Notes: generated from the letters alone by a model not told the origin. Positions 42,365-61,893 are shown, counted from the stretch's first letter. The stretch: DNA of 64,000 bases from Candidatus Micrarchaeota archaeon (GCA_020854825.1 JAHKLY010000001.1:1-64000), one strand, 5' to 3'. Numbers and translations are program-made.

Positions 42365-42431
42365 AATATCACCTAATACCTAAAATAAGCAATATTATTT
42401 AAAGGGAAACCTCTTTAAAATACTTACTATT

Positions 42432-42505
42432 GCCCTTATAGTATAACTTGGATAGAATAGAACCTTGCGGAGGTTAAGATCGGGGTTCAAATCCCCGTAG
42501 GGGCA
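42432..42505 (+). tRNA. tRNA-Arg(GCG), no intron, CCA not encoded
   Basis: GCCCTTA/TAGGGGC acceptor stem, anticodon arm AACC-TTGCGGA-GGTT, T arm CGGGG-TTCAAAT-CCCCG. Confidence 0.95.
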
Positions 42506-42513
42506 TTAATTAG

Positions 42514-42688
42514 TGCGCCTGCCGGGAATCGAACCCGGTTCTCAAGCTTTTTCCAAAAATTATTTTTAGGATTTAAATTTTCGTAGCAACCTGTATTTTT
42601 AAATTTTCTTTTTTGAGTAAAGACCTTTTCTTTTTTAAAAAAAAAGGATTTATGGGAAGCTCGTATCCTACCGGTAGACTACAAGCGC
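42514..42688 (-). tRNA. tRNA-Gly(CCC) with 104-nt intron at 37/38 (intron 42549-42652)
   Basis: Exons GCGCTTGTAGTCTACCGGTAGGATACGAGCTTCCCA and AGCTTGAGAACCGGGTTCGATTCCCGGCAGGCGCA; BHB central helix TTCC/GGAA with 3-nt bulges. Confidence 0.93.
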
Positions 42689-59936: not shown

Positions 59937-60224
59937 TTAAAGCTTTCTTTCTGTGTCACAAGCTTTGCAAATATAAATATCTGGTAGTTTTGCGCATTTT
60001 TTAATTTCTAGCGTTTTTCCTTTTATCCATAAAGTATGGCATTTCTTACAAAATAGCTTTTTTTGCTCCTTTGTTAAGCGCAAATTAACTTTTGTTCTTA
60101 TTTTATCAACTAATTCTAAATATCGTTTAGATCTTTCAGGATGTTTATCAAACTCCTCTTGCGCTAACTTAAATAGAATTTCAATCCTTTCCTGCGCTAT
60201 TTTTTGTTTATTCATTTTTATCAC
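59937..60224 (-). CDS. rnp4: RNase P protein component 4 (Rpp21)
   Basis: IAQERIEILF, FCKKC...CKAC. Confidence 0.92.
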   Translation of the reverse strand: MIKMNKQKIAQERIEILFKLAQEEFDKHPERSKRYLELVDKIRTKVNLRLTKEQKKLFCKKCHTLWIKGKTLEIKKCAKLPDIYICKACDTERKL

Positions 60225-60234
60225 AAATAGAAAA

Positions 60235-60466
60235 TGGGCCAGGGGAGATTTGTTCTACCTGTTTCTTTCTTTTTGGTTGAGATTTTTCTTTCTTTTTAAA
60301 GAAAGAAAAAGGTCATTGAACTCCCGGCCACCGGTTAGCTTAGAGCTATATAATGCCCACAAATTAATGTGCAAACATCATAGGTCATATAAGACCGGCG
60401 CTCCAACCATTTTAGGTCTTGGTTGAAATAATATTTTCAACACAAAGCTGACTAAGCTACTGGCCC
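60235..60466 (-). tRNA. tRNA-Ile(UAU) with three introns: D-loop 60410-60449, anticodon 37/38 60337-60387, T-loop 58/59 60250-60315
   Basis: Spliced 75-nt product GGGCCAGTAGCTTAGTC|TGGTTGGAGCGCCGGTCTTATA|AACCGGTGGCCGGGAGTTCAA|ATCTCCCCTGGCCCA folds as a cloverleaf; BHB helices TTAG/CTAA, CTTA/TAAG and GTTC/GAAC. Confidence 0.92.
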
Positions 60467-60564
60467 ATAAATAATTTTTGTACTAATATTGTTATTGCAC
60501 ATCTTTAAAAAGATTTTTACTGCTTAGAAACTCTTTTAAAAGGGATTAATTAAATAATAATTGT

Positions 60565-61893
60565 ATGGTAGACTTAGGAAAAGGACTTAGAAACGCATTA
60601 GCTAAAATAACAGGCGCATCAATAGTTGATGAAAAAGCAGTTAAAGAACTAGTAAAAGAACTACAAAGAGTCCTTATTTCAAATGATGTAAATGTAAAAC
60701 TTGTTTTTGAATTAACAAAAGAAATTGAAAAAAAAGCATTGGATGCAGAACTTTTAAAAGGACTTTCAATGCGTGAACATGTTGTAAAAGTAGTTTATGA
60801 AGAATTAGCAAATTTATTAGGTAAAGATTACAAACCAGAATTAAAAAAACAAAGAATAATGGTACAAGGATTATTTGGTAGTGGAAAAACCACTTCAGTC
60901 GGTAAAATGGCATTATTTTATAAGAAAAAAGGTTTATCAACTGCGTTAATTGCATGTGATGTAGAAAGACCTGCAGCTTATGAACAATTAGAACAATTAT
61001 CTAAACAAGTTAATTGCGCATTTTATGGAATTAAAGGAGAAACAGATGTTAAAAAAATAATTAAATATGCGTTAGAAAAAACAAAAGAAGATATTTTAAT
61101 TTTAGACTCAGCAGGAAGAAGTGCATTTGATGAAAGACTAACTGAAGAACTTAAAAAAATAGTTGATGCATATAATCCAGATAAAAAATTCTTAGTTATA
61201 TCCGCAGATATAGGTCAAGTTGCTGGAAAACAAGCTGAACAATTTAATAATTCAGTAGGAATAGACGGAGTAATAATAACAAAAATGGATGGTAGTGCAA
61301 AAGGAGGCGGTGCATTAAGTGCAGTCTCAGTTTCAAATTCTAATATAGCATTTATAGGATATGGAGAAAAAATGGAAGATTTAGAACCTTTTGATTCTAA
61401 AAAATTCGTTGGCAGACTTTTAGGTTTCCCAGATTTAGAAACATTAATGGAAAAAGCAAAAACAATTGCTGAAGAACAACAAATGGATCCTGAAAAATTA
61501 CTGGAACAGGAATTAACTTTGAAAACATTTTATGAACAATTAAAAGCAGCAAAAAAAATGGGTCCCTTAGGAAAAGTATTAGGTATGATGGGTGCACCTG
61601 ATGTACCAAAAGAATTTGTTGAACAAAGTGAAGGTAAAATGAAAAAATATGAATCTGTTATTAATTCCTTAACAGAAGAAGAAAAAAACGACTATAATTT
61701 ATTGAAAAAAAGTAGTACAAGAATACAAAGAATATCAAAAGGAGCGGGTGTTTCTGTTGAAGATGTTAAAACTCTGTTAAGAGAATTTGAAAAAGCAAAA
61801 AAAATGATGAACCTGTTTAAGAAAAATCGTGGTATGCGCGGAAAAATAGAAAAAATGATGAAATCAGGCAATTTCAAACTACCTGGAATGTAA
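60565..61893 (+). CDS. srp54: Signal recognition particle protein Srp54
   Basis: GLFGSGKTT, DVERPAA, DSAGR, TKMDGSAKGGG, Met-rich M domain RIQRISKGAG. Confidence 0.97.
   Translation: MVDLGKGLRNALAKITGASIVDEKAVKELVKELQRVLISNDVNVKLVFELTKEIEKKALDAELLKGLSMREHVVKVVYEELANLLGKDYKPELKKQRIMVQGLFGSGKTTSVGKMALFYKKKGLSTALIACDVERPAAYEQLEQLSKQVNCAFYGIKGETDVKKIIKYALEKTKEDILILDSAGRSAFDERLTEELKKIVDAYNPDKKFLVISADIGQVAGKQAEQFNNSVGIDGVIITKMDGSAKGGGALSAVSVSNSNIAFIGYGEKMEDLEPFDSKKFVGRLLGFPDLETLMEKAKTIAEEQQMDPEKLLEQELTLKTFYEQLKAAKKMGPLGKVLGMMGAPDVPKEFVEQSEGKMKKYESVINSLTEEEKNDYNLLKKSSTRIQRISKGAGVSVEDVKTLLREFEKAKKMMNLFKKNRGMRGKIEKMMKSGNFKLPGM

Follow-up and report, generated by a model that had tools for sequence, protein, structure and literature searches.

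The question raised by this locus is whether a tRNA gene that is interrupted three times could be the reader of AUA codons in its host, an archaeon with a genome of 828 kb (7 contigs, 28% GC, 97.6% complete). An earlier sequence-only reading of the window, i.e. the whole stretch of 64,000 nucleotides that was analysed, had called the organism rich in ATA codons. This is borne out by its 461 open reading frames of at least 200 codons, in which ATA occurs 47.5 times per 1000 codons, makes up 46% of the isoleucine codons and ranks as the sixth commonest codon. Gene structure, conservation, covariation, the presence of enzymes, the absence of TiaS and codon usage were all computed directly.

The same reading had placed a tRNA-Ile with a UAU anticodon at positions 60235-60466. 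These limits are correct, and the gene runs on the minus strand from 60466 to 60235 (232 nt), with no CCA encoded at its 3' end; its parts are listed in Table 1. When the proposed introns of 40, 51 and 66 nt are removed in silico, the claimed 75-nt product is obtained, which ARAGORN calls tRNA-Ile(tat) with a regular cloverleaf and to which our own search (see below) gives the full score. The cloverleaf is canonical, with a 7-bp acceptor stem, U8, a 4-bp D-stem, GG in the D-loop, an anticodon stem of 5 bp closing a 7-nt loop (U33 and a purine at 37), a 5-bp T-stem, the pair G53-C61 and a UUCRA loop. Position 21 is a G, the usual base at this position in tRNAs being A. The exons have 60% GC, compared with 28% for the genome. 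The spliced sequence is identical to tRNA-Ile(GAU) of the same genome at 62 of 75 positions; the 26 further candidates that reach 18 points or more share 39-55 positions with it. This identity, the anticodon loop CTTATAA and the discriminator A73 point to an isoleucine-type body that carries a UAU anticodon. The assignment of the anticodon also holds: C32-U33-U34-A35-U36-A37 are contiguous in exon 2, following the 5-nt stem strand, and a shift of the splice register by one base therefore cannot alter it.

Table 1. Coordinates, in the window, of the tRNA-Ile(UAU) gene, its exons and introns, and neighbouring elements.
Feature	Position	Strand	Remarks
Whole pre-tRNA-Ile(UAU) coding region	60235..60466	-	G1 at 60466, A73 at 60235
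Exon 1, 17 nt	60450..60466	-	Acceptor 5' strand, U8 A9, D-stem 5' strand, D-loop bases 1-4
Intron 1, 40 nt, D-loop	60410..60449	-	After the 17th base, Sprinzl 17/17a
Exon 2, 22 nt	60388..60409	-	Remainder of D-loop, D-stem 3' strand, anticodon stem 5' strand, C32-A37
Anticodon UAU	60391-60389	-	In exon 2
Intron 2, 51 nt, anticodon loop	60337..60387	-	Canonical 37/38 site
Exon 3, 21 nt	60316..60336	-	A38, anticodon stem 3' strand, variable loop, T-stem 5' strand, T-loop 54-58
Intron 3, 66 nt, T-loop	60250..60315	-	58/59 by the BHB rule
Module in intron 3 (pyrimidine run, purine run, second purine run)	60262..60312	-	Member of a repeat family
Exon 4, 15 nt	60235..60249	-	T-loop 59-60, T-stem 3' strand, acceptor 3' strand, discriminator A73
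TTTT directly 3' of A73	60231..60234	-	Likely archaeal terminator signal
TATA-box-like TTTTTAAAGA	60502..60511	-	36-45 nt upstream of G1; conserved in the related genome G001; weak, in AT-rich DNA
RNase P protein subunit Rpr2/Rpp21 gene	59937..60224	-	Downstream neighbour; Pfam PF04032, E=2.4e-13

Other tRNA genes in the genome are likewise preceded, at a distance of about 30-45 nt, by boxes of the TTTAWA type, and a run of at least four T, starting at most 3 nt from the gene end, is present in 18 of the 22 tRNA genes that we accepted (counted by eye in the gene table; for the inventory see below). The Rpr2/Rpp21 gene starts 11 nt past the tRNA gene on the same strand, which places a tRNA-processing protein behind a tRNA gene. 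The gene of ribosomal protein S19e also lies downstream on the same strand, and that of SRP54 upstream on the other strand.

Our search for interrupted tRNA genes used pairs of complementary 7-bp strands, 64-520 nt apart, as acceptor-stem anchors, and a cloverleaf template in which at most three jumps were permitted, each only at a 4-bp helix between two 3-nt bulges. Run blind to the solution, it returned three solutions at the locus, the best of which is the proposed model with the maximum of 20 points out of 20; the two others, at the same anchor, reach 16 points, give 87-nt products with variable regions unlike those of tRNAs, and were rejected. Over the whole genome, the search yielded 38 anchor matches, 27 of them confirmed by ARAGORN. 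Eight matches were found on contigs C4 and C1, and none at any score when the same contigs were reversed without being complemented (3313 anchors in 383 kb of control strands). Additionally, the whole precursor folds with a z of -5.9, and none of 200 shuffled sequences folds equally well. Being strict about the splicing motif, the search misses relaxed forms of it: it failed on the orthologous gene of a second genome of the same genus (G001, locus L034) and on the elongator tRNA-Met gene at C4:107309-107537, both of which were solved by hand.

Standard annotation had been expected to overlook the gene, and ARAGORN and the Rfam tRNA model both do so: on the raw window each reports the same single tRNA, tRNA-Arg(gcg) at 42431-42506, and no tRNA-Ile(UAU), and the 19 weak matches that Rfam gives at E<=10 for 60100-60600 include no tRNA. 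On the whole raw genome ARAGORN calls eight tRNA genes. A scan of GC islands for the missing tRNAs (224 islands) did not discriminate. Adjoining the tRNA-Arg(GCG) gene, at 42514-42688 (-), there is a 175-nt candidate for another tRNA with several introns; its best solution, an 82-nt product with anticodon TTA, is probably mis-spliced, and it is possibly of the Leu type.

At each of the three introns, a motif of the bulge-helix-bulge (BHB) type, that is, a 4-bp central helix with two opposite 3-nt bulges, is present in the register that yields the cloverleaf, with the very cores UUAG/CUAA, CUUA/UAAG and GUUC/GAAC that had been proposed. In intron 1, the core UUAG/CUAA is flanked by the bulges UCA and AAU and by an AT-rich inner hairpin, and the motif counts as relaxed because its outer helix is only 1 bp long. 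Intron 2 has the sole strict hBHBh' motif: the anticodon stem CCGGU/ACCGG serves as outer helix, the core is formed by C32-A35 (CUUA) and an intronic UAAG, with UAU and CUA as bulges, and an inner hairpin of 13 bp follows. The core GUUC/GAAC of intron 3, with the bulges AAU and AAA, has an inner helix beyond a G.A mismatch next to the core and, as outer helix, the T-stem in a shifted register; this motif was also counted as relaxed. Relaxed motifs like those of introns 1 and 3 have been reported to be cut by the epsilon2 enzyme (PMC3239211).

A real tRNA gene that is spliced differently, through other junctions or with an insertion retained, would give another loop or an unusual tRNA. This alternative draws on the observation that the BHB cores do not form in unconstrained MFE folding, where forcing them costs 1.7-4.5 kcal/mol, on the two 16-point solutions for the same anchor, and on the T-loop junction of the G001 gene, which fits 59/60 (TTCA/TGAG) better than 58/59. 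Those solutions, however, fall short of the 20 points of the model and owe their length to regions foreign to tRNAs, and all T-loop junctions from 55/56 to 58/59 lead to one and the same product, since CAA is the 3' end of exon 3 as well as of the intron. Moreover, the spliced sequence is colinear with orthologs that have a single intron, its D-loop and T-loop being as long as theirs (e.g. locus L035), and the anticodon bases lie together in one exon. We consider a different splicing very improbable and retain the junctions of Table 1.

The conservation of the gene was followed with a 17-mer that spans the 3' strand of the D-stem, the 5' strand of the anticodon stem and CTTATA, with up to two mismatches allowed. 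Of 61 genomes from the host's order, 34 contain it, and the reversed pattern gave four matches. Short helices are generally easy to find in AT-rich sequence, and the cloverleaf might be a chance match in such DNA with no gene behind it; this distribution of orthologs, the empty reversed control strands and the GC-rich exons make such an origin hardly conceivable. Our search solved 25 of the 35 related loci examined, with a 73-75-nt product and 19 points or more. A BHB intron of 18 to 145 nt at 37/38 is common to these 25; it is the only one in 24 of them, and L015 has a second one after position 59. The solutions for L004 and L005, with implausible products of 81 and 88 nt, were dropped as mis-solved, and eight of the 35 loci gave no solution in this search.

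Direct alignment showed three introns at the same places in G001. Splicing by hand (introns of 40, 53 and 68 nt) gives a 75-nt product that ARAGORN calls tRNA-Ile(tat). The T-stem, GGGAG/CUCCC in the host, is GCCGG/CCGGC in G001, which amounts to three double compensatory changes between strands that intron 3 separates by 66-68 nt in the DNA. This is strong evidence, at the level of sequence, that exons 3 and 4 would be joined in a functional RNA. The G001 core of intron 2 contains one A.G mismatch, which, together with the 59/60 junction, indicates that the motifs drift within the relaxed range. In 27 sequences (25 distinct), the anticodon loop CTTATAA and the discriminator A73 are present without exception. 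Several stem pairs show three to five pair types, with up to five per T-stem pair, and one of 567 cells is unpaired, counts that lean towards pairing because the search demanded stems. In family f6, the UAU 17-mer is absent from 13 of 15 genomes and TiaS_FLD was found in none of the 15, all of which have a GAU arm; in this family, the AUA decoder either has diverged further or has an interruption inside the 17-mer. Among four DNA sequencing runs, contigs of X1 and X5 carry a 501-nt stretch of the locus unchanged, and no intron-less joint was seen; many other contigs, some of them from a run of a different habitat, match only the part with the module (60260-60320).

In the sequence-only reading, AUA would be decoded without TiaS. 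The corresponding search agrees with this: the Pfam domain TiaS_FLD has no match at E<=1 in the 97.6% complete host genome, and four control archaea score over the cut-off. Within the order, one genome of 61 has a match over the cut-off, located on a 1.8-kb contig of G013, which is 75% complete. CAT anticodon arms were sought in three scans that admitted unbroken arms as well as arms with a single intron at any point, and two credible CAU arms came to light in the host genome. One belongs to the initiator tRNA at C3:129704-129778, which has no intron. The other belongs to an elongator-type tRNA(CAU) at C4:107309-107537 (+) (L042) with introns of 69 nt (37/38), 66 nt (53/54) and 19 nt (near 58/59); ARAGORN calls the hand-spliced sequence tRNA-Met, and the raw gene is missed by ARAGORN, by Rfam and by our search. 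Both the leader and the T-arm intron of L042 carry the pyrimidine/purine module. Seven further stem-loops with CAT gave no cloverleaf. Since the organism needs an initiator and an elongator CAU tRNA, no CAU gene is left over for tRNA-Ile(CAU), and none was found in a search that is blind to some relaxed motifs and in an inventory that comprises about 24 of roughly 45 expected tRNAs. A second UAU copy was not found either: the 17-mer occurs once in the host genome, and there is only one CT-TAT-AA arm.

For the inventory of tRNA genes, the 11 of the 38 candidates without an ARAGORN call were dropped, as were 5 of the 27 with a call (c3, c12, c13, c19 and c28). The products of c3, c12, c13 and c19 are long, and these candidates were read as mis-spliced; c3 (C2:961-1169), which ARAGORN calls tRNA-Ile(aat), resembles a mis-spliced gene of the Ser type, given its long variable arm and its G73. 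Of the 22 accepted genes, one lacks introns, 11 have one, seven have two and three have three, the usual sites being positions 15-17 in the D-loop and 56-61 in the T-loop. With tRNA-Arg(GCG), without introns, and the elongator tRNA-Met, with three, the total is 37 introns in 24 genes, or about 1.5 per gene. Over the genes solved, this density is as high as the record described for Pyrobaculum calidifontis, 71 introns in 46 genes (10.1101/614032).

The second isoleucine tRNA of the genome, tRNA-Ile(GAU) at C2:232724-232902 (-) (L041), has no intron at 37/38. Its two introns, of 41 and 63 nt, occupy the same D-loop and T-loop sites as introns 1 and 3 of the UAU gene and are recognisably homologous to them. 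The first 29 bases of the two mature tRNAs are identical except for one. The anticodon and T stems differ, those of the UAU tRNA matching UAU orthologs elsewhere. Most simply, gene conversion or intron transposition within the genus would have carried both additional introns from one isoacceptor to the other, an account that fits better than a young UAU gene derived from the GAU gene. Recent intron gain would be cleanly illustrated here, by two added introns that the isoleucine isoacceptors of a single genus have in common. A loose pattern for the module of intron 3 has 36 matches in the genome, 12 of which lie within accepted tRNA genes or at most 60 nt from them; the remaining matches fall at unassigned loci, which may mark undetected tRNA genes.

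The repeat nature of this module bears on the idea that the locus is a decaying pseudogene, inactivated by copies of a spreading repeat in its D-loop and T-loop, with AUA being read in another way. Besides the repeat family in intron 3, the merely relaxed motif of intron 1 could be taken in its favour. A pseudogene is difficult to reconcile, however, with the intactness of all stems and conserved bases (20 of 20 points), with a relative in G001 that keeps three introns and has undergone three compensatory changes in the T-stem, with homologous introns at the same two sites of the essential tRNA-Ile(GAU), or with a genome in which no second UAU copy and no TiaS were found and ATA is the sixth commonest codon. 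We regard decay as a most unlikely explanation.

Splicing of non-canonical and multiple introns had been said to need an endonuclease of broad specificity, and an enzyme of this kind is present by alignment. A 414-aa open reading frame for EndA, at C3:146655-147899, aligns through residues 21-414 with positions 3-387 of the 395-residue chain of PDB 4FZ2 (E=2e-136), the epsilon2 endonuclease of ARMAN-2 (PMC3488258). The Tyr-Lys pair of the ASL loop, described as needed for broad specificity (PMC12397907), is kept (GTYKVSEHGNL in 4FZ2, ASYKAEQRGNI in the host); the roles of ASL residues are treated in PMC3488258 and PMC12397907. To judge from its sequence, a single three-unit polypeptide that can be aligned from end to end and has the ASL Tyr-Lys, the host EndA is of the epsilon2 type. 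The genome also has a gene for the ligase RtcB at C1:3685-6369 (+), which scores 506 bits and whose 937-aa frame contains a large insertion. The RtcB profile match is split, model positions 1-50 and 46-426 lying about 1.35 kb apart in one open frame, and the insertion looks like an intein.

Taken together, these observations make it very likely that the locus is a functional gene for an AUA-reading tRNA-Ile(UAU) in a small Micrarchaeota-like DPANN archaeon. We infer the following pathway, from transcription through cleavage, ligation and charging to the state of U34. Transcription from the minus strand would yield a precursor no shorter than 232 nt. A homodimeric EndA of the epsilon2 type would cut the three BHB motifs, in the D-loop at 17/17a, in the anticodon loop at 37/38 and in the T-loop at 58/59; RtcB would ligate the four exons, and CCA would be added afterwards. 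The 75-nt tRNA would then be charged by IleRS and would be the sole AUA decoder in a genome without TiaS and probably without tRNA-Ile(CAU). The 37/38 intron would be ancestral to the order, and the D-loop and T-loop introns, the latter with a repeat module that recurs in tRNA introns of the genome, would be later additions in the genus, common to the tRNA-Ile(GAU) paralog. The sole decoder of one of the commonest codons would thus be invisible to standard tRNA finders; since these miss the gene, annotations of such DPANN genomes would wrongly report an absent AUA decoder and too few tRNAs.

The intron at 37/38 deserves separate consideration. In a count made independently of our BHB search, an interruption immediately follows position 37 of the UAU anticodon arm in all 34 evaluable loci, which are spread over many genera (one truncated locus was left out). 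The GAU arm is interrupted in 15 of 28 evaluable loci and contiguous in 13 (2 of 30 loci were off-pattern), a contrast that is suggestive only, because related genomes are not independent samples. U34 and A35 lie within the core CUUA/UAAG, so that the anticodon pairs with the intron in the predicted precursor. Pairing of this kind is a feature of any canonical BHB intron. We put forward, as a speculative and on balance improbable proposal, that the 37/38 intron may be obligatory in this order, the paired anticodon setting or blocking a modification of U34 or U36 in such a way that AUG is not misread. An invariant 37/38 intron raises the testable question of how U34 is kept from reading AUG. 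A haloarchaeal tRNA-Ile mutated to U34 is reported to have bound AUG as well as AUA (PMC3895270), and in M. mobile an unmodified UAU anticodon is described as working with an adapted IleRS and ribosome (PMC3575796). An obligatory intron would be convergent with eukaryotic tRNA-Ile(UAU), whose intron promotes Psi34 and prevents modification by Elongator, as described in PMC11408192; in yeast the intron is reported as needed for Psi34/Psi36 and as blocking Elongator modification (PMC4090602, PMC11408192). Elp3 is present in the host genome at 636 bits, but the TruA/Pus1 family (PF01416) has no match there at E<=0.001, 13 of 14 control genomes being over the cut-off, and the enzyme involved would therefore have to be a different one. 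An intron-dependent Psi34/Psi36 system of the eukaryotic type was not adopted as an explanation: the anticodon is paired with the intron, yet PF01416 has no match.

The nearest known system is that of the ARMAN archaea. Fujishima et al. 2011 (PMC3239211) describe, for three ARMAN lineages, the presence of tRNA-Ile(UAU) together with the absence of both tRNA-Ile(CAU) and TiaS, as well as cleavage in vitro of the 37/38 intron of the ARMAN-2 precursor; the pre-tRNA-Ile(UAU) of ARMAN-2 was used again as a substrate in PMC12397907. According to these accounts, ARMAN-2 (Candidatus Micrarchaeum acidiphilum) shares with the host the UAU anticodon, a strict hBHBh' intron at 37/38, the lack of TiaS, an epsilon2 EndA and probably also the lack of tRNA-Ile(CAU). 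It is described there with one intron of 25 nt, whereas here the 37/38 intron has 51 nt and is accompanied by introns in the D-loop and T-loop. We infer orthology to the ARMAN-2 tRNA-Ile(UAU) through the EndA match and the related genomes of the order.

The sequence-only reading had treated UAU anticodons as rare exceptions and had named Nanoarchaeum as an example. With the ARMAN genes published in 2011, Nanoarchaeum is not the nearest precedent. Nanoarchaeum equitans and Korarchaeum cryptofilum likewise have an archaeal tRNA-Ile(UAU) that replaces the CAU/agmatidine system, and the UAU gene of K. cryptofilum has an intron, its GAU paralog none, as described in PMC6000648 and 10.1101/614032. 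Both belong to other phyla, and their UAU genes are not described there as having three introns.

It is established that tRNA genes of the Thermoproteales, also archaea, can contain as many as three introns (10.1101/614032). As far as described there, these organisms resemble the host in having up to three BHB introns per gene, at non-canonical sites that include the D-loop and T-loop, and in needing an endonuclease of broad specificity. They differ in belonging to another phylum and in having an (alpha-beta)2 enzyme, whereas that of the host is epsilon2. A further difference belongs to general background: the Thermoproteales use tRNA-Ile(CAU) with TiaS. The eukaryotic tRNA-Ile(UAU) system with Pus1 and Pus4 concerns the same isoacceptor and has the same distribution of introns over three arms, a likeness that is, as far as can be told, convergent.

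The literature searched contained no archaeal tRNA-Ile(UAU) with three introns and no invariant 37/38 intron, although supplementary tables, such as the ARMAN lists of PMC3239211, may hold such genes. The novelty is accordingly low to modest, as UAU without TiaS in ARMAN archaea and archaeal tRNAs with several introns are already known. New in comparison with these systems are the extra D-loop and T-loop introns, common to tRNA-Ile(GAU), and the invariant interruption at 37/38; moreover, the ARMAN pattern of UAU in place of CAU plus TiaS is extended to a whole order (17-mer in 34 and TiaS in 1 of 61 genomes).
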